Of a stretch of 31,933 nt of DNA, positions 2,161 to 19,797 are shown piece by piece. This stretch comes from Nitrospinales bacterium (GTDB taxonomy: Bacteria > Nitrospinota > Nitrospinia > Nitrospinales > JAJDAT01): contig JBHHYO010000026.1 in assembly GCA_046757665.1 (NCBI GenBank), forward strand, positions 1-31,933, in the 5' to 3' direction. Under the pieces are notes generated by a model. That model ran no database searches and was not told the origin of the DNA. It worked only from the letters and a program-made list of their open reading frames with translations. Every line of letters begins with the position of its first letter. The first letter of the stretch is position 1. Position numbers and translations under genes: made by a program.

Positions 2161-2664
2161 ATGAAACGTCAATATATCCCGATCCTGCTCTCCGCAATGC
2201 TGGCCGCTACGGTGGCGGCGGCGGGGACGGGTTTTGCCCTGGAATCGGCGCGCCATGATTTCGAGCGCATCGACACCCTCTCGGACATTCCCCGGGAACC
2301 CGGATGGGGGCATCCTTCCTACCGCGGCTGGGAGGTGATGAGTATCCCGGGGCTGATCTCGACTTACTACGACCTCGACTCCAACGGCGAGCTGGACTAT
2401 ATGGTGATCCGCAAAGTGTTGCGAAAAGTCGACGCGGAAAAAACCACGGTGGACGAGGCCATTGAAACCGCCAAAAGGGACCATGTCAGCGTCTATTTTT
2501 CTAACCCGGTAATTTATTTTACGGAACGGTATCCCCTGTTTTACTGTCTGGGCGTCGATTACCGCCGCAATTGCAGGAAAATCTGGGTGGACATCTCCGA
2601 GGATGGCTTGAACGGCAATGAATCGTTGTATACCCTGTCAGCGCCCAGTCCGCATGTGCGTTAA
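2161..2664 (+). CDS. exported hypothetical protein with DxDxDG-like Ca-binding motif
   Basis: ATG 2161 gives signal peptide MKRQYIPILLSAMLAATVAAAG; DLDSNGELD motif; Cys pair; overlaps next gene by 11 nt. Confidence 0.75.
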   Translation: MKRQYIPILLSAMLAATVAAAGTGFALESARHDFERIDTLSDIPREPGWGHPSYRGWEVMSIPGLISTYYDLDSNGELDYMVIRKVLRKVDAEKTTVDEAIETAKRDHVSVYFSNPVIYFTERYPLFYCLGVDYRRNCRKIWVDISEDGLNGNESLYTLSAPSPHVR

Positions 2665-4186
2665 GAAGTACGTTTTTCTTCTGGCCGTCTTTTGCTTGTT
2701 TCTCCGGGGAGTCGGCGGGGAGCCGGCATGGGGGCACGAGGGCGATGTCCCGCCTCCGTCTTCCGGCAAGAGTTCGCTGGTCGTGGGGGAGACCATTTAC
2801 AAGCACATGTGCTCGTTTTGCCACGGGTTGGACGGCAATGGCGGCGGCAAGGCCATGGCTTATCTGTACCCGTGGGCCCGGGACTTCCGCAAAGGGATTT
2901 TTAAATACCGCTCCACTCCCGCCGGCTCGCTCCCCCGGGACGCCGACATTTTCCGCACCATCACGCGGGGCATTCCGGGGACCGCCATGCCGGCCTGGGG
3001 CGCATCGCTCACCGAGGAGGAAACCCGGGCGGTGGTCGCATACATCAAGACCTTCTCCAAACGCTTCGAGCAGGAAAAACCCAAACCTCCCATCGCCGTG
3101 GGAACGCCGCCCGCCGACACCCCGGAGGCGCTGGCCCGTGGAAAACAGATTTTCACCGAGATGCGTTGCAGTCGGTGCCATGGTAGCGACTTGAAAGGCG
3201 ACGGCCCCCTCGCCGACAACCTGTTCGACATCTGGGACCATCGGGCGTTCGTGTACGACCTCACCGACCCCAACGCCTACAAGTGGGGGTTTGAAAAAAA
3301 GGACATCTACCTGACCCTGACCGCCGGAATCGACGGCACGCCGATGAACTCTTACAGCCATCTGACGGACCCGGAGCGCTGGGACCTGGCCGCCTTCGTG
3401 CGGTCGAAAATCGACATCGGGAATTATAAGGAAGCCCTCTACGAAAGCGATCTACATGCGCAAAAAGTCGAAGGCGACATTGCCGTAGAGCCCGACGACC
3501 CCGCCTGGCTGGAGGCCCCCGCAAGGGAAGTGCACTTGATTCCCCTCAGCGCGCGCCGGGCTCCCGTCAACGGCATCAAGGTTCAGGCGTTGGTCAACGA
3601 CGAGGCAATCGCGTTCCGGCTGGAGTGGGAGGACAAAACGCCCAACCGCTCCTCCAGCCGCCACCAGGATTTCAAGGACGCCGTCGCCATGGAGTTTGCG
3701 CTGGGCGACGTGGTGCTTCATGCCCACGGTCACAACGAACCGTTCTTCGGCATGGGCAACCGGGGCAAGGTGGTGAATATCTGGCAATGGCGCGCCGACT
3801 GGCAACAAGACATTGAAACCAAAAAAAAATTGGAATATGCTACCAAGGGGATGGACCTCGACACCATGATCTTTGGCGGCGAAGTGAATCCCGTGGAATC
3901 GCTGAATCCGTTCCGAACCGTTCCCGTCGAGGAGCTGAACGCCGAGGGCTTCGGCACCTTGACGCCGCAACCGCGGACCCGGCAGAACATCAAGGGAAAG
4001 GGCGTTTGGAAGGAAGGAAAATGGAAGGTTGTGTTTTACCGCACCCTGGACTCCTTGAACAAATGGGACGTCAAGTTCGACACTAACGCGCCGATACTGG
4101 TCTCTTTCGCGGTTTGGGACGGTTCCCACAAGGATAGAAACGGGCGCAAGGTGATTGCCATGTGGCAACGCCTGCATCTGCCCTGA
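2654..4186 (+). CDS. diheme cytochrome c fused to ethylbenzene-dehydrogenase gamma (EbdC/DOMON) heme-b domain; NxrC-like candidate
   Basis: Signal peptide; CSFCH and CSRCH, each followed by a distal Met (GTAMP, GTPMN); C-terminal RLEWED, DAVAMEF, PFFGMG, NIWQWRA, FAVWDG...RNGRK motifs. Confidence 0.88.
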   Translation: MCVKKYVFLLAVFCLFLRGVGGEPAWGHEGDVPPPSSGKSSLVVGETIYKHMCSFCHGLDGNGGGKAMAYLYPWARDFRKGIFKYRSTPAGSLPRDADIFRTITRGIPGTAMPAWGASLTEEETRAVVAYIKTFSKRFEQEKPKPPIAVGTPPADTPEALARGKQIFTEMRCSRCHGSDLKGDGPLADNLFDIWDHRAFVYDLTDPNAYKWGFEKKDIYLTLTAGIDGTPMNSYSHLTDPERWDLAAFVRSKIDIGNYKEALYESDLHAQKVEGDIAVEPDDPAWLEAPAREVHLIPLSARRAPVNGIKVQALVNDEAIAFRLEWEDKTPNRSSSRHQDFKDAVAMEFALGDVVLHAHGHNEPFFGMGNRGKVVNIWQWRADWQQDIETKKKLEYATKGMDLDTMIFGGEVNPVESLNPFRTVPVEELNAEGFGTLTPQPRTRQNIKGKGVWKEGKWKVVFYRTLDSLNKWDVKFDTNAPILVSFAVWDGSHKDRNGRKVIAMWQRLHLP

Positions 4187-9560: not shown

Positions 9561-10028
9561 ATGAAAAACATACGCAATCCTTTTCTTGTGGCGCTCGCTT
9601 CGCCCGTTTACATGTTGGCGGCCACCGTGGCCGTCACCAACGACTTTCTTATGGGCGTCATGTTTATTTTGTTTAATCTGGCCCTGCTGGGCGCCTATGT
9701 GTCCGACTTTCATGTGATTCACGATCTGTACTGGAACGAAGTGGCGCATAAGGTCGCCCTTTCTTCTTTCGCCGGCGTTTTCATAGGAATGCTGTTGTTT
9801 TTGTTCATGGCGCCGACGGGGAATACCTCGGCGCCCAGCGCAATTTCGCCGGGTGGCCGGTTTCTGGTGCCGTGGGCGACCATGTCCGTTCCCTCGTATC
9901 TGCTGACGCTTTTCCTGGTCTTTCGCCTGAACAAGCGCGACCTGGAAGCCGAGGAAGCCGTCCGCCTGGAGAAAAAAAAGAACCGAAAATCGAGCGGTCC
10001 GCCCTTGATGGACAAGGACGGATTGTGA
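9561..10028 (+). CDS. hypothetical membrane protein (~4 TM)
   Basis: 155 aa, four hydrophobic segments, charged C-terminal tail; fills the gap between two tRNAs. Confidence 0.8.
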   Translation: MKNIRNPFLVALASPVYMLAATVAVTNDFLMGVMFILFNLALLGAYVSDFHVIHDLYWNEVAHKVALSSFAGVFIGMLLFLFMAPTGNTSAPSAISPGGRFLVPWATMSVPSYLLTLFLVFRLNKRDLEAEEAVRLEKKKNRKSSGPPLMDKDGL

Positions 10029-10059
10029 TACATCAGAATGATCTAAAGAAATAAAACGT

Positions 10060-10131
10060 GGCCCTATCGTCTAGGGGTTAGGACGCCGGCCTCTCACGCC
10101 GGAAACAGGGGTTCAATTCCCCTTGGGGCTA
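10060..10131 (+). tRNA. tRNA-Glu (anticodon CTC), CCA not encoded
   Basis: Acceptor GGCCCTA/TGGGGCT, anticodon arm CCGGC-CTCTCAC-GCCGG, T arm AGGGG-TTCAATT-CCCCT, discriminator A followed by CTT. Confidence 0.94.
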
Positions 10132-10200
10132 CTTAATAAATGCGTTACTTCATCCATTATACACAGTAGTCCTCCGCCATCTTCAATTTAGGAGACCAAT

Positions 10201-10410
10201 ATGGTTAAAATCTCCATGGAAGAGGAAGAAATCAAGAAAATTTTCAAGCAGGCATTGCTTGAAGTTCTTCAAGAGCGAAAAGACATTTTCTATGATGTGC
10301 TCTCTGAGGTAATGGAAGACCTTGCCCTTGCAAAAGCCATAAAAGAAGGCGGAACCACGGAGTCCGTGTCCAAAGAGGAAATTTTTCAGACACTCGAAGG
10401 TCCCGCTTGA
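10201..10410 (+). CDS. putative antitoxin (acidic, partner of RelE-like toxin)
   Basis: 69 aa, EDLALAKAIKEG...VSKEEIF motif, AGGAG RBS, 4-nt overlap with downstream relE-like gene, low GC. Confidence 0.75.
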   Translation: MVKISMEEEEIKKIFKQALLEVLQERKDIFYDVLSEVMEDLALAKAIKEGGTTESVSKEEIFQTLEGPA

Positions 10411-10637
10411 AAGTTGATTTCAAAAGAAGTTTTAACAGGGATTTGAAACGAGTTAAAAGTATCTCCATCAAGAACCAGATAAAGAAAACAATAGAAAGCG
10501 TTGAGAAGGCCCAACATCTTCAAGAAATAAAGCACATCAAAAAACTCGGAGGCGGTGATCGCTATTATCGTATTAGAGTACGTTTGACCTTTGTGAGGTT
10601 TCTTCACCGTAAGGAACTTTACGGGCGCTTTCCTTAA
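10407..10637 (+). CDS. RelE/StbE-family toxin, apparently with an internal in-frame deletion (possible pseudogene)
   Basis: TTG start; FKRSFNRDLK, IKKLGG...YYRIRV, FVRFLHRKELYGRFP; the usual GDYRIG-plus-strand segment is absent; 76 aa. Confidence 0.75.
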   Translation: MKVDFKRSFNRDLKRVKSISIKNQIKKTIESVEKAQHLQEIKHIKKLGGGDRYYRIRVRLTFVRFLHRKELYGRFP

Positions 10638-10640
10638 AGC

Positions 10641-10694
10641 GGCATCATCCGATGCCAAATCCATTTCTGGTTTCTATTCTAAAACCACTTTTTT
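10641..10694 (+). terminator. hairpins/possible terminator between convergent relE and comM
   Basis: GGCATC-ATCC-GATGCC and TGGTTT...AAACCA followed by CTTTTTT. Confidence 0.35.
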
Positions 10695-10713
10695 CAGCGA
10701 TAAGTTACTGTTA

Positions 10714-12246
10714 CTAAATCCAGCTGTTGCGGTCGAGGGTGCGGTACTGGATGGCCTCGGCGACGTGCTCGGACTGGATATCGGCCTCGCCGGCGAGGTC
10801 GGCGATGGTGCGGGCGACTTTCAGGATGCGGTCGTGGGCGCGGGCGCTCAGCCCCAGCTTGTCCATGGCCATCGCCATGATGTTTTTCGACGCCTCGTCC
10901 AGCGGGCAATGGGCCTTGATTTGCCGCGTGTTCATCTGTGAATTGGAATAATTGCGGGCATCCCGGAACCGTTGCAACTGCACCTTGCGCGAGCGTTCGA
11001 CGGATTCGCGGATGGCGGCGGAGGATGCGCCGACGTTTTCCGAGGACAGCTCCTGGTACTCCAGCGCCGGGACTTCGATATGAATGTCGATGCGGTCCAG
11101 CAGGGGGCCGGAGATGCGGGAAAGGTATTTTTTGATCTGCAAGGGCGTGCAGTGGCATTCGCGCTTGGGGTCGGACTGGTAGCCGCAGGGGCAGGGGTTC
11201 ATCGCCGCCACCAGCATGAAGTTGGCGGGATAGGTCAGCGACCCGGCGGCACGGGCGATGGACACCGTTCCCTCCTCCAGCGGCTGGCGCATGACTTCCA
11301 GCACGTTGCGCTTGAATTCCGGCAGTTCGTCGAGGAACAAAACGCCGTTATGGGCGAGAGAAACCTCGCCGGGCGTGGGGAACCGCCCGCCGCCGATCAA
11401 ACCGGCGTCGGAAATCGTGTGGTGCGGTGCGCGGAACGGCCGCCGAACCACCAGGCCGGGACCGTTTTTGAGCAGGCCCATGATGCTGTGGATTTTCGTC
11501 GTTTCGATAGCTTCGTCGAGGGTCAGCGAGGGCAGGGTGGTGGGCACCCGCTTGGCCAGCATGGATTTGCCGCTACCCGGCGGGCCGATCAGCAAAATGT
11601 TGTGGCCGCCGGACGCGGCGATTTCCAATGCCCGCTTGACATGTTGCTGACCCTTGACGTCGGTGAAATCGACGTCATACCCCGGGCATTGGAAAACGTC
11701 TTCGTCCGCGGCGAAAGTTTGCGGCGCCACGTCCAGGGCGCCGCCGAGAAATTCCAGGGCGGCGGGCAGGCTGTCCATCGGATAAACCTTCAATCCCTTG
11801 ACCACCGCCGCCTCACCGGCGTTTGCCGGCGGCAGGATGATGCTGTCGATGCCTTGCCTTGCGGCCATCGTCGCGATGGACAACGCGCCGCGCACCGGCT
11901 TGATGCGCCCGTCCAGCGACAGCTCGCCGAGAATCACGCTACGCGAAAGAGACTCCTTGTCGATGAGGCCGTTGGCCGCGAGGATGCCCAGGGCAATGGG
12001 CAGGTCGAAAGCGGAGCCTTCTTTCTTGATGTCGGCGGGGGCGAGGTTGACGGTGATCCGGCGCAACGGCAATTCCAGCCGGGTGTTCTTGATGGCGGCG
12101 GTCACCCGGTCGCCGCTCTCCTTGACCGCCGTATCGGGCAGGCCGACGATCGACATGCCCGGCACGCCGACCGCGAGGTTCACCTCCACCTCCACCAGAT
12201 AGCCCTCGATGCCCAGCACCGCGCCGCTTTGCACTCGCACCATCAT
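10714..12246 (-). CDS. comM: YifB/ComM family Mg-chelatase-like AAA+ ATPase
   Basis: [65 protein letters not shown]. Confidence 0.95.
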
Positions 12247-12494
12247 ACGAATCACCTCGCCGAAATTCCCGAAGCTTGCCAGACGGAAAAACTACGGATA
12301 ACGGTACACCAGCGGGACTTCGCGGTCAAGCCGACGCTTTTTACACGGAAACCTTAAATAATTTCACCGAATCGAGTAATATAGAATGGTTGTCGATAGG
12401 GCGGAACCGCATCGGTCGACTTAAAGAATTTTGAGTCGCGGGCCGATATGGCTTATGACGCGGGTTTTGCGTGAAACTTTTCGATGGTGCTTGT

Positions 12495-14753
12495 ATGGCG
12501 GTGAAACGGCCGAAACATTTGCTCATCATCGGTGGCGGAGTGTTCCAGGTGCCGCTCATCAAGGCGGCCAGGGAAATGGGCCTGAAGGTGGTGGTGACCG
12601 ATTACAACGCCGACGCGCCGGGAATGTTGCCGGCCGATTTTCCGCTCGTGGTCAGTACGCGCAACATCAACCTGACGGTGAATGCCGCCAGGGAGTTCCA
12701 CCGGGAATGCCCGCTGGACGGAGTGATGACCGTGGGGACGGATGCCTCGCAGACCGTCGCCGCCGTGGCCAATGCCCTGAGCCTGCCCGGCATCCCTTTT
12801 GAAGTCGCGGAACGGGCCACCGATAAAATCAAGATGCGCCGCTGTTTGAGGGAAAACGGCGTGGCGGTGCCCGATTTCCGCCCGGTTTGGACTTTTGAGG
12901 AGGCCCATCAAGCGGTGCGGGAAATGGCGCTTCCGCTGGTGATCAAGCCCTGCGACAACATGGGCGCCCGCGGCGTCAAGAAAATTCAGCAGGCGGAGGA
13001 CCTGACCGCCGCTTTTTACGAGGCCAAGGAGCAGTCGGTCAGCGGCAACCTGATCGTTGAGGAATTCATGGACGGGCCGGAGTTGAGCCTCGACGCCCTG
13101 GTGTTTGACAATCACATCGAGATCACCGGCATCGCCGACCGGATCATTGAGCGCTCGCCCTATTTTGTGGAAGTGGGGCATACCATGCCCTCGGACCTGC
13201 CGCGCGCCCGGCAGGAGGAGGCGGCGCAACTGTTCCAGGCCGGCATCCGGGCTTTGGGGATTGATATCGGCGCCGCCAAGGGCGACCTCAAGATCACGCC
13301 GTCCGGACCCAAAATTGTCGAAATCGCCGCCCGCCTGAGCGGCGGCTGGATGTCCGCCTACACCTATCCCCTGTCCACGGGCATCAACCTGTTTAAAGCC
13401 GCGATTGAAATTGCCCTGGGAGGCAGGCCGACGGATTTGCGGCCCCGCAAATCCTGGGTCGCCGCCGAACGCGCCCTGACGCCCGCGCCGGGGAAAATCC
13501 TCTCCATCCGCGGCGTGGACGAGGCGCGGAAAATCAAGGGAATCGCCGAAGTCATCCTCATGAAGGAAGCAGGCGATATCGTCACCGAACTCAAAAGCAA
13601 CCTGGGCAAAACCGGGTACGTGATCTCCGTCGGCAAGACGCGCCGCGAAGCAATCCAACGCAACAACCTGGCCCGCGGAACCATCAAGATCGAAACCGGG
13701 CGGACGGATGCGCTGACCTGGGATATTATCCGCAACAATGCCCGCAAAAAATTTTATACCGCCTGCAAGGCCTGCCCGGTCTGCGACGGCGTGGAATGCG
13801 CCGGCAGGGTTCCCGGCATCGGCGGCATCGGCGTCGGCAATTCGTTCACGGAAAACCTGGCGGCGCTGGCGCGGTACAAAATCAATCTGCGTACCCTGCA
13901 CAACGTCAAAACCCCGGACCTTTCCGTGGAGCTTTTCGGGCGCAAACTGGATATTCCGGTCCTGGCCGCTCCGATTACCGGCATGGAAACCAACCTGGGC
14001 GGGGGAATGAGCGAAAAGGAATACGCCGAGGCGGTGCTGGACGGCTGTATTAATTGTGGCACGCTGGGAATGGTCGGCGACGGCGCCAGCCCGGACAAGT
14101 ACCGGATCGGTCTCGAGGTCATCCAGAAGATGGGCGGTCTTGGCGTGCCGATTTTCAAGCCCCGGGAATCCAATTGGCAGATCATCAAGCGGTTCCAGGC
14201 GGCGCAGGAGGCCGGGGCTATTGCCGTCGGCATCGACATCGACGCCGCTTCCTTTAAAACCATGTTGATGAAGGGCCAGCGCGTTGCGCCGAAAACCATC
14301 GACGAATTGCGCGAGTTGCGAAAGCATCTGTCCGTGCCGTTCATCCTCAAGGGAATCATGAACGCCGAGTCTGCCCTGGCGGCGGTCGAGGCGGGAGCCG
14401 ACGCCATCGTGGTCTCCAACCACGGCGGGCGGGTCATGGACTACATGCCCGGAACCGCCGATGTCCTGCCGGAAATCGCCTCCGCGGTTGCCGGCAGGGT
14501 CAAGGTGCTGGTTGACGGCGGCATCCGCGAGGGTATCGATATTCTCAAAATGCTCGCGCTGGGCGCCGACGCGGTCATGATCGGCAGACCCGTCTGCATC
14601 GCCGCCTTTGGCGCGGGCCGGGAAGGCGTCGAATTCTTCCTCCAGGAAAAAACCCGGGAACTGCGGCAGGCGATGATCCTCACCGGTTGCCCCGCCGTGA
14701 ACAGCATCGACCCCGCCGTGATTGTCCGGGACTCCAAGGGCAGACACCGATGA
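12495..14753 (+). CDS. fusion: ATP-grasp ligase plus FMN-dependent alpha-hydroxy acid oxidase/dehydrogenase with Cys4 motif
   Basis: N-half: DKIKMR, PLVIKP, GARGV, VEEFMDGPE, EIAARLSG; C-half: CKACPVCDGVEC, APITG, ILKGI, VSNHGGR, DGGIR, IGRP; one uninterrupted ORF (alternative GTG start 12471). Confidence 0.9.
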   Translation: MAVKRPKHLLIIGGGVFQVPLIKAAREMGLKVVVTDYNADAPGMLPADFPLVVSTRNINLTVNAAREFHRECPLDGVMTVGTDASQTVAAVANALSLPGIPFEVAERATDKIKMRRCLRENGVAVPDFRPVWTFEEAHQAVREMALPLVIKPCDNMGARGVKKIQQAEDLTAAFYEAKEQSVSGNLIVEEFMDGPELSLDALVFDNHIEITGIADRIIERSPYFVEVGHTMPSDLPRARQEEAAQLFQAGIRALGIDIGAAKGDLKITPSGPKIVEIAARLSGGWMSAYTYPLSTGINLFKAAIEIALGGRPTDLRPRKSWVAAERALTPAPGKILSIRGVDEARKIKGIAEVILMKEAGDIVTELKSNLGKTGYVISVGKTRREAIQRNNLARGTIKIETGRTDALTWDIIRNNARKKFYTACKACPVCDGVECAGRVPGIGGIGVGNSFTENLAALARYKINLRTLHNVKTPDLSVELFGRKLDIPVLAAPITGMETNLGGGMSEKEYAEAVLDGCINCGTLGMVGDGASPDKYRIGLEVIQKMGGLGVPIFKPRESNWQIIKRFQAAQEAGAIAVGIDIDAASFKTMLMKGQRVAPKTIDELRELRKHLSVPFILKGIMNAESALAAVEAGADAIVVSNHGGRVMDYMPGTADVLPEIASAVAGRVKVLVDGGIREGIDILKMLALGADAVMIGRPVCIAAFGAGREGVEFFLQEKTRELRQAMILTGCPAVNSIDPAVIVRDSKGRHR

Positions 14754-15547
14754 AATCGAAACGGTTCAAAGTGCTGAAGCGCCCGGACGCCCGGACGCAA
14801 TGGCTGGAAGCCTTGCGCCGCCTGAAAACCCGGTTCGGGGCTTGCGGCCTGAAACTGTCCACCGAGGACGCGGCGATGAGCCTGGAGCAGATCGACTACT
14901 GGAGCCGGTTATGTTCGGGCATCGTGCCGGTCGTCGTCAAAATCGGCGGCCCCAACGCCCGCGGCGACATCAAGCGCCTGCTGACCATGAAAATCGACGC
15001 TCTCGTCGCGCCGATGGTGGAATCGCCGTACGGCCTGGAGAACTATATCGACGCGGTGCGCGACTTCACCACGCCCATTCGGTTTGCGGCGCTCGGTAAG
15101 CGCATCAATATCGAAACCCGCACCGCCGTGGAGCAACTGGACGCCATTCTGGCCTCGCCGCCGGCGGCGCACCTGGATGAAGTCACCATCGGCTGTACGG
15201 ATTTATGCAAATCCATGCAATGCTCTCTTCGGGACCCCGCTCTTCTGGCTTGCGTCAAGGATTGCGTGGCGAAAATACAGTCGAAGGGTCTCAAGGTATC
15301 CGTGGGCGGCGGCGTGTCCCCCAATGACATCGACGCCCGGTTGCGCGATATGTTGCCGGACAAATTCAATACCCGCCTGGTGACGTTTGACGTGCGCCCC
15401 GGCCACAGTTATCGCGATGCCGTCGGCGAGGCCCTGGAACTGGAAATGTCGATGCTGGCCATCGACCGGGAAAAGGGGTTTATTTCCGGGGAAGAAGAAA
15501 AGTTCCGCGTTCGGGAACTCGAAAAACGGTTGCCTCCCGGAGAGTGA
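14750..15547 (+). CDS. HpcH/HpaI aldolase / citrate-lyase-beta (CitE) superfamily protein
   Basis: ATGA overlap with upstream stop; VKIGG, APMVES, INIET (Glu) and IGCTDL (Asp) metal-ligand positions, VGGGV. Confidence 0.8.
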   Translation: MKSKRFKVLKRPDARTQWLEALRRLKTRFGACGLKLSTEDAAMSLEQIDYWSRLCSGIVPVVVKIGGPNARGDIKRLLTMKIDALVAPMVESPYGLENYIDAVRDFTTPIRFAALGKRINIETRTAVEQLDAILASPPAAHLDEVTIGCTDLCKSMQCSLRDPALLACVKDCVAKIQSKGLKVSVGGGVSPNDIDARLRDMLPDKFNTRLVTFDVRPGHSYRDAVGEALELEMSMLAIDREKGFISGEEEKFRVRELEKRLPPGE

Positions 15548-15616
15548 AATTCGGGTTTCCATTGCCGCCGCGAGCCGGCATTTCCCCGCTTTTTTGATGC
15601 GTGCCGGCGAAATCTA

Positions 15617-15651
15617 TAAAAATTTGACAAAATTTTTAATTGGTTTAAACT
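15617..15651 (+). promoter_or_regulatory. candidate aclBA promoter with palindrome over -35
   Basis: TTGACA 15624-15629, 16-nt spacer, TAAACT 15646-15651; TAAAAATTT-GACA-AAATTTTTA inverted repeat 15617-15638. Confidence 0.45.
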
Positions 15652-15797
15652 GCTTATTTGACAATCCAACTCAATGGGTTCATGGGGCAGGGCAAAATGC
15701 CTTTCCCCAAAAAATTTTGCCTAAATAGGCTCTTTTTGCTCATAATCATCCCCGTTGCGGATGTCGTGAGCCGAATATTTTCAAGCGGGAGAGACCG

Positions 15798-17066
15798 ATG
15801 CAACTGACCGGTATGCTCTGGGGACGCAAGTTATTGGACCTGGTCGAATTCCCTCACTCCGAGGTTCGGGGGCCGGAGGCCAGCGTGGACGATATCAAGG
15901 CGTTGATCGAGAAGCATGGGGAAATTTTTATCAAACCGGTGTTCAAGGGAGGCGTGGGGAAAAAAGGCAAATCGGGGTTGATCGGCCGGGTCAACAACAT
16001 CGCCGATGCCTTGAAGGAAAAAGAGCGTCTTTACTTTGCCACCCATCAGGTGGAGCACCACAAGGTCAAGGCGGACGGGGTGACGTTCGAGGGCGCGGTG
16101 CCGGCCAAGCATGAAGTTTATTTCTCCCTCAGCGACAGCACGGTTTACCGCGCTCCCACCATGACCATCACGCACCACGGCGGCGTGGACATCGAGGAAC
16201 TGCCGGCGGATAAAATCGCCCAGGTGCCGTTCGATGCGTTGACCGGGCTGAAAGCGTTTCACGTCTCCAACGCCTTGACGGGGTTGGGAGCGCCGCCGGA
16301 GATCATCAGCCCCCTGGTGCAGAATCTGCCCAAACTCTGGGACCTGTACAACAACTACGGCATGATCCTGCTGGAACTCAACCCCATCCGCATGATGAAC
16401 CGCAAGGGGCGGCTGTTGCCGGTTGCCTGCGATTTCAAGGCCGCGTTCGACATCGACGACCCGTCGTGGAAGCGTTTGCGCCTGCCTTCCCACCTGTTCG
16501 CCTCCGATTATTCCGAGTTCGAGCAGGAGATCAACCAGCTCCGGACGTACCAGGGGCAGAGCGACGTCTTCGTCATCAACGACCAGGGCACCATCACGGC
16601 GCCCACTTTCGGCGGCGGCGCCAATGCCATGGTGACCGAACTGCTGGGCGAGGCGGCCACCATTTCCTCCGACTTCGGCGGCAACCCCCCGTATGCCAAG
16701 ATGAACGAAATCGCCAAAATCACCTTCAAGTACTGGTTGCCGCGGTCGAACGTTTTGTTCATCATCGGCGGCAAGGCCAACAACACCGACATCTATGAAA
16801 CCTTCCGCGCCATGGCGGATGGCCTGAAAGAGTTTTTTCAAACCCACGGCCCCATTCCCCTGTTTGTCGTGGTCGGCCGGGGCGGTCCGAACTTGATCCG
16901 CGGCATGTCCTATCTGCGCGACACCCTGGAGGCTCTCGGACTGCCGTACCGTTTTTTCGGGCACGACAGCGCCATGTCCGAGGTCATCAATTACGCGATG
17001 GCAGTGAACCAGTGGATGGCGAACGGGGGCAAGGAAGCAATTAAAACTAAAATGCAAATCAAATAA
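15798..17066 (+). CDS. aclB: ATP citrate lyase beta subunit
   Basis: SucC-like ATP-grasp (IKPVFKGGVGKKGKSG, HHGGVDIE, LELNP), GGGAN, DFGGNP, IGGKANNTDI, GRGGPN; GGGAG RBS. Confidence 0.92.
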   Translation: MQLTGMLWGRKLLDLVEFPHSEVRGPEASVDDIKALIEKHGEIFIKPVFKGGVGKKGKSGLIGRVNNIADALKEKERLYFATHQVEHHKVKADGVTFEGAVPAKHEVYFSLSDSTVYRAPTMTITHHGGVDIEELPADKIAQVPFDALTGLKAFHVSNALTGLGAPPEIISPLVQNLPKLWDLYNNYGMILLELNPIRMMNRKGRLLPVACDFKAAFDIDDPSWKRLRLPSHLFASDYSEFEQEINQLRTYQGQSDVFVINDQGTITAPTFGGGANAMVTELLGEAATISSDFGGNPPYAKMNEIAKITFKYWLPRSNVLFIIGGKANNTDIYETFRAMADGLKEFFQTHGPIPLFVVVGRGGPNLIRGMSYLRDTLEALGLPYRFFGHDSAMSEVINYAMAVNQWMANGGKEAIKTKMQIK

Positions 17067-17085
17067 GCCGTTGGAGGTTTGTGCA

Positions 17086-19797
17086 ATGCACCAAAAGGGA
17101 GTGGAAGCGTTTCCTTATTATGTAGGGATCAATTCGCTGGCCGAATTGGCGACCCCGCAGGATAAGGTTGTGGTTTTGAACATCCTGGGAAAGGAAAGCT
17201 CCGGGGTAACGCCCATCAGCCATGAATATTCCGGAGGCAATATCGTTTTCGGAACCGGGCCGGGGAAATCGGGCAAGTTTCTGGAGACCCGGCTGGGAAA
17301 AATCCCGGTTTACAACTCCATCAAGGAAGGCCGCGCCGCCGGGCACCGGTTCAATACGGTGGTGGTTTACCTGCCGCCCTCCGGGGTGAAGGATGGCGTC
17401 GCGGAAGCGGTGCGCCAAAACCCCGAATTGAAAAAAGTCGTTGTCCTCACCGAAAAAATTTCGGTCAAGGATGCGCGCATCATGCGGGCCATCTGCCAGA
17501 CCAACGGCGTGGACTTGTTCGGCGGTAACTGTTTGGGCCTGGCGGACTCATGGAACCACGTCCGCATCGGCGGCGCCCTGGGCGGCAGTCACCCGGAGGA
17601 GTCGTTGATCAAGGGCAGTGTCGCCATCTTCTCCAATTCCGGCAACTTCACCACCACCATCGCCGTGTACCTGGCTACTGCCGGCTGGGGAACCACCACT
17701 TCCGTGTCCAGCGGCAAGGACGTTTATATCCAGTACGGACCCAAGGAGTTCCTTTATGCCTTGGACCATGACGACCGCTCCAAGGCCGCCGTTTTGTACT
17801 GCGAGCCGGGAGGCTATTACGAGCGCGGGATCGAAAGTGAAAAACCCCTGGTCGCCTGCGTCGTTGGGCGTTGGAAAGCCAAGCTGACCAAGTCCTGCGG
17901 CCATGCGGGGTCGCTTGCGGGGTCCGGCGACGACGCGCTCGCCAAGGAAAGATGGTTTATGGAGTATTTCGGGGTTGACGGTATTTACACGCCGAGCAAA
18001 CCGGTGTTTTCCAAAAAGGGCGCTCTGGTCACCAATATCGCGCATATTCCCGAGGCGCTCACCCGCGTCATGGAAGCCAACAAGGTGAAACCCGATTTTG
18101 CGCCCCGGGGCAATCTTTCGCTGAAATGCTGGTTCGGCAACAATGGCGGACTGCCGTTGCCGAAGGAACTGGATGTGCCGGTGGTGCGGGCTCTGTCGCC
18201 TTATGACCAGCAAATCGCGCTGTTGGAAAAACAGGTGGGCGCTCTTTTCCGACGGGAAACCCTGAAAGATGCCAGCGGCGCTTCCATGATGGACCCGAAA
18301 ACCCAGGTCTCCAAAATCCACAATGTTTCCATCCTCGACGCCTCGCGCAAGTCTTTCGAGTCCAATCTGGTGTTTGCCCTGGTCAAACAATATCCCTGCG
18401 AGGCGGGCGAGGCGCTGGCCAATGTGGCGTTGAACGGTTTTGTCAACCTGCGCGGCCATGCGGCGCTCACCGCGGCGGAAGCGGCCCGGCAGAACGGCAA
18501 CTCGCCCAATACGGTGCTTGCCGCCGTTGCCGCCATCATGGGGAAAAAAACCGCCCGGGCCGCCATGGACGCCGCCGCGGCGCTTCTGGAACTCTTCCAG
18601 TTTTCCGAGATGCGCGACGCCATGGAGGATTTCGATTACGCGGACATTTTGAAAAACGCGGCAAAGCACAAGGAGGCGTTGCTTCCCCAATCCGGCGATG
18701 GCCGTGGCGAACTTATGGCCCGGGCGGCGGGCGCGGGCAACTCGGTTTTCATGAAGTTCTGCCTGGACTTCGCCAGGGAAAACAAGGTTGCCTTGTCCCA
18801 GGACACCGTGCTGGCGGCGATTTGGATGACGCTGGGATGGAACAGTTTAAAAACGAAACGCATTTCGAAGGAAACCCTGATCGCACTGCCCTGGTACTCC
18901 AAACTGTTCAGCGCCCTGGTCGGAGCTACGGCGCCTGCCGGCAAGCATGATGAAAACGCTTTTTGCGGCATGTCCATGGATGACCTCATCGGCAAATGCA
19001 GTTTCACGCGAACGGCATTCATGGCCCTGCTGGGGCGGGAGCCCAAGCAGGAGGAACTGTTCGAGTTCCAGGTTCTTCTCGGCTTGATCATCACCAACGG
19101 GCCGGGCACCATCTCGGCGCAGGGAGCCAAGGGCGCCGTCAGCGCCGACGGTCCCGAACAACCGGACCGCGTGCAGATCAACAAGGCATTTGTCGGGTTT
19201 CTGACCCACACGGGCTTTGCCCACGGCGGCAACGGCTACGAGGCCGCGGCGTTTCTGATCGAACAGTTTAAAAACACCTCCTTGAAAAGTCCCGCCGACG
19301 CCAACCACGGCATCGACCTGGACAAACTGGCCATGGATTACGCGCAATCCTACGCGGCTTACAAGAAAGAACAAAAGGGACTCGGCAATCTCAACTACGC
19401 CAAAATCCCGTGCGTCAACCATCCCGTGTTCAAGGGCAAACCGGTCAACGTGGACCCGCGCGAGGAGTTTGTCGGCAACCTGTTCAAGGAAAAAGGGTTG
19501 CACAATGTTTTCCTCGATTTTTATCACAGCCTCGTTCAGGCTCTTTTCAAGGCGGAAGTCAGCAGTAACGTTTATTGCGTGAATGTCGATGCCGTCATTG
19601 CCGTGATCATGCTGAAAGTGGTCTGGGAGGATTACAAAGCCGGCCGGTTGGCGGAAAACGACATCGAAACCGCCAGCTTTGCCACGTTCCTGTTTGGCCG
19701 CATGATCGGCTGTGCCGCGGAAATCGACGATCATCTGAATCGCGGACGCAACATGGATACGCGGACGCCCGCGAGCCGATGCACCTTTGTGGGCTGA
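17086..19797 (+). CDS. aclA: ATP citrate lyase alpha subunit, long (~900 aa) form
   Basis: CoA-binding/SucD-like N-terminus (GGNCLG, SNSGN), phospho-His GHAGS, C-terminal citryl-CoA lyase region (GFAHGG, VNHPVF, NVDAVI); GGAGG RBS before ATG 17086. Confidence 0.92.
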   Translation: MHQKGVEAFPYYVGINSLAELATPQDKVVVLNILGKESSGVTPISHEYSGGNIVFGTGPGKSGKFLETRLGKIPVYNSIKEGRAAGHRFNTVVVYLPPSGVKDGVAEAVRQNPELKKVVVLTEKISVKDARIMRAICQTNGVDLFGGNCLGLADSWNHVRIGGALGGSHPEESLIKGSVAIFSNSGNFTTTIAVYLATAGWGTTTSVSSGKDVYIQYGPKEFLYALDHDDRSKAAVLYCEPGGYYERGIESEKPLVACVVGRWKAKLTKSCGHAGSLAGSGDDALAKERWFMEYFGVDGIYTPSKPVFSKKGALVTNIAHIPEALTRVMEANKVKPDFAPRGNLSLKCWFGNNGGLPLPKELDVPVVRALSPYDQQIALLEKQVGALFRRETLKDASGASMMDPKTQVSKIHNVSILDASRKSFESNLVFALVKQYPCEAGEALANVALNGFVNLRGHAALTAAEAARQNGNSPNTVLAAVAAIMGKKTARAAMDAAAALLELFQFSEMRDAMEDFDYADILKNAAKHKEALLPQSGDGRGELMARAAGAGNSVFMKFCLDFARENKVALSQDTVLAAIWMTLGWNSLKTKRISKETLIALPWYSKLFSALVGATAPAGKHDENAFCGMSMDDLIGKCSFTRTAFMALLGREPKQEELFEFQVLLGLIITNGPGTISAQGAKGAVSADGPEQPDRVQINKAFVGFLTHTGFAHGGNGYEAAAFLIEQFKNTSLKSPADANHGIDLDKLAMDYAQSYAAYKKEQKGLGNLNYAKIPCVNHPVFKGKPVNVDPREEFVGNLFKEKGLHNVFLDFYHSLVQALFKAEVSSNVYCVNVDAVIAVIMLKVVWEDYKAGRLAENDIETASFATFLFGRMIGCAAEIDDHLNRGRNMDTRTPASRCTFVG

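Follow-up and report, generated by a model that had tools for sequence, protein, structure and literature searches.

We analysed a stretch of DNA of 31,933 nucleotides from a Nitrospinales bacterium (contig JBHHYO010000026.1), which at its full length is referred to here as the window. It holds a gene, P0001, whose product joins an ATP-grasp ligase module to a flavin barrel of the alpha-hydroxy-acid oxidase type, with a conserved four-cysteine segment (Cys4) at the N-terminal edge of the barrel. The gene and its principal sites are located as follows.

12495..14753, + strand: fused gene P0001, 752 amino acids (aa), a single open frame of 752 codons with an alternative GTG start at 12471
12495..13709, + strand: L-amino-acid-ligase-type ATP-grasp module, residues 1-405, from Pfam and from sequence and fold match to 3vot
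13722..14729, + strand: FMN_dh (beta/alpha)8 barrel, residues ~410-745, from Pfam and from sequence and fold matches to oxidases
13764..13799, + strand: C424-x2-C427-x2-C430-x4-C435 (C424 K A C427 P V C430 D G V E C435), then P440-G-x-G-G, conserved at the N-terminal edge of the barrel
14349-14351, + strand: K619, conserved with D583
14415..14432, + strand: S641-N-H643-G-G-R646, catalytic His/Arg motif, from motif conservation

The fused gene and its two halves

The fusion is genuine and is no assembly error. The first-pass annotation, made from the sequence alone, had described a single open reading frame (ORF) carrying both halves, and this description was borne out by uninterrupted relatives in hundreds of genomes. 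In a protein-cluster search, the best 120 clusters listed are 707-763 aa long, with 72-100% identity and 94-100% query coverage, and 18 of the 150 listed representatives at 50% identity give one uninterrupted match from residue 10 or earlier to residue 717 or later. Matches in whole-genome searches of Nitrospinota and Spirochaetota are uninterrupted frames, and no internal stop was seen in those from Nitrospinota. Assembled contigs of runs X1 and X2, which may be the source samples, show 0 differences over 12400-14440 and 14411-14900. One contig of run X3, which comes from a different study, spans 12788-14900 with 175 substitutions and a compensating 1-nucleotide deletion and insertion at 12986/12993, so the junction near 13700 is bridged independently. 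The full-length homologues, the uninterrupted frames in genomes and the X3 contig across the junction together rule out two genes with a missed stop between them.

Logan contigs of all four runs (4/4) break or branch within 14400-14600 of the window, the conserved SNHGGR-DGG region, and short pieces of other organisms map there. These breaks are a graph effect of the conserved motif and mark no feature of the gene.

In alignments, homologues begin at about residue 5 of the form that starts at ATG 12495, which fits this start as against the in-frame GTG at 12471. The gene is G+C-rich (GC 0.60-0.63), and a 764-aa ORF lies across the whole of it on the opposite strand (12453-14747, - strand). Because all family and homologue matches fall on the + strand, we read this antisense ORF as a shadow of the G+C-rich fusion gene.

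The ligase half contains the complete L-amino-acid-ligase-type ATP-grasp domain that had been recognised in the initial annotation, with three Pfam models above cut-off: ATPgrasp_N over residues 23-99 (35.7 bits, cut-off 27), ATP-grasp_4 over residues 145-287 (60.4 bits, cut-off 27) and LAL_C2 over residues 327-401 (63.6 bits, cut-off 29.4). Its closest solved proteins by sequence are BL00235 (PDB 3vot, 2.8e-36), 4dim, RizA and BacD. In an AlphaFold2 model of the fusion protein (mean pLDDT 89.1, pTM 0.66), the ligase half was matched by Foldseek to 3vot_B (E 6.8e-34, TM 0.89 normalised to the target). BL00235 (3vot), RizA (4wd3) and BacD/YwfE (3vmm) have ATPgrasp_N, ATP-grasp_4 and LAL_C2, the fold and an E-x-x-x-R motif in common with the fusion, yet their identity to its ligase half is only 17-25% and, unlike the fusion, they are stand-alone enzymes of dipeptide-antibiotic or unknown pathways, without a flavin barrel. 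Across 19 diverse fused sequences (alignment A1), K151, E189, E196, E276 and R280 do not vary, and E276-I-A-A-R280 aligns with EVGAR of 3vot and EIAMR of 4wd3. The central-domain Lys, together with the Glu and Arg of E-x-x-x-R, presumably serve as nucleotide/Mg-binding and catalytic residues, and judged by these motifs the ligase half looks catalytically competent.

The C-terminal half matches Pfam FMN_dh at 1.6e-67 (228.4 bits, cut-off 24.9) and, as had been proposed, keeps the His of SNHGGR and opens with CxxCxxCxxxxC. By sequence it matches the solved oxidases of lactate, glycolate and mandelate at 1e-51 to 1e-20, mostly over residues 594-747, and flavocytochrome b2 was also matched. Likeness by sequence is strong only over ~594-747, the first half of the barrel being strongly diverged from the solved oxidases; Foldseek with the whole barrel of the model gave TM 0.75-0.82 normalised to the HAO1, mandelate oxidase and GOX chains. 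H643 and R646 lie within SNHGGR, and K619 and D583 are invariant or nearly so in the alignments of fused and stand-alone barrels. We take K619, H643, R646 and D583 to be Lys230, His254, Arg257 and Asp157 in spinach glycolate-oxidase numbering, and their catalytic roles are assigned on the same footing.

Glycolate oxidase/HAO1, L-lactate oxidase, mandelate oxidase, LldD and flavocytochrome b2 have the barrel fold, the His and Arg of SNHGGR, the Lys and the Asp in common with the fusion, and the second half of the barrel is ~40-50% similar between the alpha-hydroxy-acid oxidases and the fusion. The fusion barrel differs from them in its diverged first half, in the Cys4 segment that stands in place of the lid and in the apparent absence of equivalents of Tyr24, Tyr129 and Arg164. 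Because scores against the NCBIfam equivalogs are far under their cut-offs (LldD, 138.1 vs 550 bits; L-lactate oxidase, 110.1 vs 645.5 bits; MftD, 119.3 vs 470.85 bits), the barrel is best classed as a superfamily member that belongs to no characterised family, a distinct subfamily. The lactate/glycolate oxidase assignment of the first-pass annotation thus stands at the level of the superfamily, with FMN_dh and the His-Arg-Lys-Asp set kept, but not for an ordinary oxidase, given the low equivalog scores and the differing Tyr24, Tyr129 and Arg164 sites. The database names "glycolate oxidase", "L-lactate dehydrogenase" and "alpha-hydroxy-acid oxidizing protein" probably mislead.

The Cys4 barrel subfamily also occurs alone, as proteins of ~340 aa with 41-52% identity to the fusion barrel. 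The Cys4 segment is kept in 18 of the 19 fused representatives in A1 and in 13/13 stand-alone barrels with a full N terminus, and it sits upstream of where alignments to the solved oxidases start. We consider it a probable metal or iron-sulphur (Fe-S) site on the strength of its motif, which may bind [4Fe-4S], [2Fe-2S] or Zn. AlphaFold2 confidence is low here (block means over residues 421-450 of 74, 57 and 61, with residues 437-441 below 50), as expected, since the site was modelled without a cofactor. In the sole fused representative without Cys4, P0130, the catalytic His, Arg and DGG motif are gone too; as both P0130 and a related copy in genome G260 have lost Cys4 and catalytic motifs together, Cys4 goes with catalysis.

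Further hints of a redox role come from other members of the family. One metagenomic Cys4 barrel (L134:1488-2843, 451 aa) bears an N-terminal Rieske [2Fe-2S] domain, the named clusters of stand-alone barrels come from Bacillota and Thermodesulfobacteriota, and the barrel family is common in gut and sediment anaerobe samples. A second fusion partner of the Cys4 barrel is an N-terminal HAD_2 phosphatase (P0200, 557 aa). The earlier suggestion that Cys4 may be an Fe-S site allowing O2-independent reoxidation is made plausible by its conservation, by the anaerobe samples and by the Rieske variant, although these do not prove the cluster itself. Trimethylamine dehydrogenase and the 2,4-dienoyl-CoA reductase FadH combine an FMN (flavin mononucleotide) TIM barrel with a closely spaced Cys cluster, which provides a one-electron exit from the flavin. 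The fusion barrel would resemble both in this combination; they have, however, an old-yellow-enzyme-type barrel with the Cys motif after it, whereas in the fusion the motif precedes the barrel. No relation to them by sequence was detected, though none was specifically tested for.

Cys4 might instead be a structural Zn site and the protein an ordinary O2-using oxidase. Four Cys within 12 residues occur in zinc sites too, and Nitrospinota and Leptospira are aerobes, which we count in favour of this alternative. We nevertheless judge it very unlikely, given that gut and sediment anaerobe samples are rich in the family, that a Rieske-fused variant exists and that Cys4 stands in place of the active-site lid and disappears along with the catalytic residues.

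Distribution in Nitrospinota and Spirochaetota

Within Nitrospinota, the fusion was matched in 65 of 120 genomes, in 32 of the 57 high-quality genomes and in 17 of 30 genera; one of the 65 matches (G006) covers the ligase half only, at 30% identity. It was not found in genus g8 (0/4 genomes, 96-99% complete) or in genus g10 (0/11), and it is therefore not a Nitrospinota-wide core gene. Named homologues come from Nitrospinae, Nitrospinaceae, Ca. Nitrohelix and Ca. Nitronauta. A scan with one genome per species returned 367 relatives, among which the best after Nitrospinota were Spirochaetota (many of them Leptospirales) and Coatesbacteria, at 50-55% identity; for the fusion in Leptospirales, identity is about 53%. 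Of 301 evenly sampled Spirochaetota genomes, 287 gave a match at E <= 1e-30. The protein is fused in at least 148 of the 301, since 148 of the 150 listed places (150 genomes) span residue 10 or earlier to residue 733 or later. A search for the architecture across genomes, as the first-pass annotation had envisaged, thus finds the fusion but also finds it far from rare.

Full-text literature searches did not find a biochemical study of the fusion or of its architecture, in keeping with the initial statement that no characterised enzyme combines ATP-grasp and FMN_dh in this way. A table in a paper gives Leptospira interrogans LA2659 as a "hypothetical" protein that has both domains of the fusion; the protein is uncharacterised, and its likeness to the fusion is by this description only.

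The gene neighbourhood

Downstream of the fusion, the window contains the following.

14750..15547, + strand: divergent HpcH/HpaI-like gene P0271, 265 aa, Pfam HpcH_HpaI 33 bits vs cut-off 25
15536..15555, + strand: terminator-like hairpin where the HpcH-like gene ends, from a consensus scan
15624-15651 and 15717-15746, + strand: promoter-like sites, from a consensus scan
15798-17066 and 17071-19797, + strand: two divergent ATP-citrate-lyase (ACL)-like genes, from weak family matches

The ATG of P0271 overlaps the TGA of the fusion gene as ATGA (14750-14753), and in Nitrospinota the fusion is translationally coupled to the HpcH/HpaI-like gene. Among the 45 Nitrospinota-type loci (L001-L045), the HpcH-like gene adjoins the fusion in 39: in 38 it comes immediately after the fusion, and in L045 immediately before it. 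Of the remaining six loci, four end inside the fusion, and L033 and L035 go straight from the fusion into an ACL-like gene. Whole Nitrospinota genomes with a strong HpcH-like match (E < 1e-50) number 55, and 54 of these also have the fusion. A near-length search with the HpcH-like protein gave 180 matches, which are Nitrospinota wherever named. R71, E91 (APMVES) and D151 (GCSDLS) are invariant in 20 HpcH-like sequences and, as we assume, resemble the Arg and the metal ligands of the HpcH/HpaI aldolase and citrate-lyase beta superfamily. No solved relative of the protein was found by sequence. A complex prediction for the fusion and the HpcH-like protein scored 0.00 and was counted neither way.

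With terminator-like and promoter-like sites in between, which are weak evidence as consensus-scan results, and synteny broken in several loci, the gene layout suggests a two-gene unit made up of the fusion and the HpcH-like gene, to which the ACL-like genes probably do not belong. The latter are represented by a Citrate_bind match (8.4e-17) and by a 908-aa protein with a succinyl-CoA-ligase alpha-like N terminus and a citryl-CoA-lyase-like C terminus. ACL genes of "very low similarity" are described in a passage on Nitrospina gracilis (PMC3578206), and the ACL-like genes of the window fit the low-similarity ACL of that passage. The possibility that the fusion is part of this reductive tricarboxylic acid cycle/ACL machinery next door draws on the ACL-like genes that follow the fusion/HpcH-like pair in most Nitrospinota loci. 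Apart from the intervening terminator-like and promoter-like sites, it has to contend with synteny that, while common in Nitrospinota, is interrupted in three loci (L016, L018, L019) and missing from two (L034, L036), with the four near-complete g8 genomes and 11 of g10 that lack the fusion, and with a tblastn search that found no ACL-like gene in 35 more distant loci (L046-L080, mostly Spirochaetota). We regard a role in ACL chemistry as extremely improbable.

A DapL-like class I/II aminotransferase that scores slightly below the equivalog cut-offs immediately precedes the fusion in L049, L053, L054 and L058 and is also found upstream of stand-alone barrels in L114 and L139, and so occurs in two distant lineages. 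The stand-alone barrels of L088 and L169 are immediately preceded by Cof-type HAD phosphatases, and a LUD-domain gene lies upstream of one in L116. No neighbour was found conserved across 80 stand-alone barrel loci. Taken together, the HpcH-like, aminotransferase, HAD and LUD context points to the chemistry of small hydroxy, oxo and amino acids but names no substrate.

Two further candidates were rejected. An MBL-fold protein (~320 aa, Lactamase_B_2) lies beside the fusion in L065:10387-11346 and L073:8124-8327 and near the HpcH-like gene in L175:239-1186 and L171:3285-3650, and the window's own genome has an orthologue (G000, contig C16:19032-20003). Orthologues are also found in the fusion-less genera g8 (4/4) and g10 (9/11), and as a fourth pathway member the protein is a weak lead. 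An alternative pantothenate pathway, with the HpcH-like protein as a PanB analogue, the barrel as ketopantoate reductase and the ligase as a PanC analogue, was set aside because canonical PanC and PanB genes are adjacent on contig C10 of the window's genome.

Elsewhere in the window, 2618-4186 (+ strand) encodes a 522-aa protein with two cytochrome c domains and an EB_dh (ethylbenzene-dehydrogenase gamma-like haem-b) domain, which might be connected with the electron path of enzymes of the nitrite oxidoreductase type. At 10201-10637 (+ strand), a 69-aa RelB-like antitoxin and a 76-aa ORF without a family match overlap in a region of low GC (0.478 for 10001-11000); this looks like a small toxin-antitoxin insert between housekeeping genes.

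A tentative function and its rivals

Drawing on the domain identities, motif conservation, distribution and gene order described above, we tentatively read the protein as a bifunctional enzyme, an O2-independent flavin/metal-cluster dehydrogenase of 2-hydroxy acids (or related compounds) combined with a carboxylate-amine ligase, and hold this reading with a little less than even confidence. Its cofactors, reaction direction, substrate and pathway would be as follows. The C-terminal barrel would bind FMN, and His643, Arg646, Lys619 and Asp583 would dehydrogenate C2 of a small carboxylate, most likely turning a 2-hydroxy acid into a 2-oxo acid or the reverse. The Cys4 segment would take the place of the N-terminal lid that bears the substrate tyrosine. 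It would most likely hold an Fe-S cluster that passes electrons one by one between the flavin and a ferredoxin- or flavodoxin-type partner, and not to O2. Flavocytochrome b2 carries an N-terminal haem electron-transfer module ahead of its barrel, and Cys4 would play a role like that of this haem domain. The ATP-grasp half would activate a carboxylate as an acyl phosphate and join it to an amine. Both activities would probably belong to one short pathway, from hydroxy acid to oxo acid, by a separate transaminase to amino acid, and on to an amide or dipeptide, with no obligatory channelling between them. In Nitrospinota, the co-translated HpcH/HpaI-like protein would add a third step as a Mg-dependent 2-oxo-acid lyase.

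A functional link between ligase and barrel is argued by the fusion's retention across two phyla, in Nitrospinota and in at least 148 of the 301 Spirochaetota genomes, and by the separate retention of both genes in a 1.1-Mb spirochaete genome (G225), which encodes a 597-aa ligase and, unlinked to it, a 293-aa barrel with Cys4 and SNHGGR intact. Pyruvate carboxylase, too, places a TIM barrel behind an ATP-grasp module, the barrel there acting on a 2-oxo acid, and Foldseek aligns both of its halves. The root-mean-square deviation of about 20 Å, however, points to a different arrangement of domains, and in pyruvate carboxylase, unlike in the fusion, the grasp module is of the biotin carboxylase type and the barrel is a metal-dependent carboxyltransferase without flavin. 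The likeness is an analogy only.

Several observations count against a bifunctional dehydrogenase-ligase. In the barrel, the substrate binders Tyr24, Tyr129 and Arg164 appear to be replaced: in weak alignments of a profile of stand-alone relatives to the solved oxidases, Met/Ile of PG(M/I)GG falls at the Tyr24 site, F-K-P-(R/W) stands where the oxidases have Gln-Leu-Tyr129, and DIDAxx, without Arg, stands where Arg164 follows Asp157. The substrate may therefore be no simple 2-hydroxy acid. As a motif, C-x2-C-x2-C-x4-C could bind Zn or [2Fe-2S]. Where spirochaetes split the protein, the two genes are unlinked, both in G225 and in G135, which also has separate ligase and barrel genes; in G126, only a ligase was matched with the fusion query. 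No ATP-grasp match lay within 6 kb of a stand-alone barrel in any of 80 metagenomic loci (0/80). In G260, a low-GC spirochaete, the fused copy (L161:1498-3669) is 41% identical overall with a well-conserved ligase half, but it has SNNNKY in place of SNHGGR and has lost Cys4, DGGIR and GRP. The partner gene also fails to accompany the fusion throughout, as genus g20 of Nitrospinota has the fusion without an HpcH-like gene beside it and only 95 of the 301 Spirochaetota genomes have HpcH-like relatives (27-38% identity). In six Spirochaetota loci examined, the HpcH-like gene was linked to the fusion in none (0/6) and no neighbour was conserved; nor was any neighbour conserved across 18 more distant fusion loci, mostly Spirochaetota.

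On the G225 locus itself, the stand-alone 597-aa ligase (L165:1507-3300) has a ~190-aa C-terminal extension of no detectable family. A barrel remnant was considered for this extension, and none is recognisable (hhalign probability 0.4). A small ORF ahead of the ligase (L165:742-1419) has what may be a 5-formyltetrahydrofolate cyclo-ligase motif.

The apparent replacement of the three classical substrate-binding residues bears directly on whether the barrel carries out 2-hydroxy-acid dehydrogenation at all. It could instead oxidise an alpha-amino amide, as MftD does, or use reduced FMN for a reduction or isomerisation, as type 2 isopentenyl diphosphate isomerase (IDI-2) does, with the metal site tuning or recharging the flavin and the ligase making the barrel's amide substrate. 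The MftD and IDI-2 models among the sub-threshold NCBIfam matches, and the strong divergence of the first half of the barrel from solved oxidases, are consistent with such chemistry. Yet the His-Arg-Lys-Asp set is that of the hydroxy-acid enzymes and not of IDI-2, the stand-alone barrels have no ligase neighbour, and the neighbouring aminotransferase, LUD and HAD genes are in keeping with free small acids. We consider a different barrel chemistry rather unlikely.

The split and degenerate copies raise the alternative that the halves are functionally independent and fused for co-expression or assembly only, the barrel serving, for example, as an oligomerisation scaffold for the ligase. This would account for a dead barrel on a well-conserved ligase, for unlinked genes in the split genomes and for stand-alone barrels without a ligase neighbour. 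The same G260 genome, however, also has a separate intact Cys4 barrel (L167:1480-2493), and its dead-barrel fusion may be a pseudo-enzyme scaffold that pairs with this stand-alone enzyme. Moreover, the fusion is kept at 45-54% identity, with catalytic motifs intact in both halves, in at least 148 of the sampled Spirochaetota genomes and in Nitrospinota. Full independence of the halves is, in our estimation, unlikely. Obligatory channelling is argued against by the unlinked split genes and by the dead barrel on a ligase, and the channelling of a 2-hydroxy or 2-oxo acid into the ligase that was originally envisaged is not supported by the genomic context.

The bifunctional dehydrogenase-ligase can be extended to a core metabolic step, in which an O2-independent Fe-S flavoenzyme would convert a small 2-hydroxy acid, which in some lineages a HAD phosphatase would set free, to a 2-oxo acid for transamination and ATP-grasp formation of an amide or dipeptide. 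We find this extension rather unlikely. If true, the step would serve housekeeping or metabolite salvage and be retained even in a spirochaete genome of 1.1 Mb, and alpha-hydroxy-acid dehydrogenases that contain Fe-S would form a new class.

Both halves come from well-known superfamilies; what is uncharacterised is the subfamily of Cys4 barrels, the joining of such a barrel to a module of the amino-acid-ligase type and the three-gene arrangement in Nitrospinota. The architecture is widespread and already stands in databases under generic or misleading names. It reaches 287 of the 301 sampled genomes of Spirochaetota, the phylum of the leptospires, and about half of the sampled Nitrospinota, major marine nitrite oxidisers, and identification of the substrate would give a function to thousands of genes. 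A probable Fe-S branch of the alpha-hydroxy-acid oxidase superfamily is indicated, and knowledge of the substrate might also reveal an oxygen-independent branch of that family.

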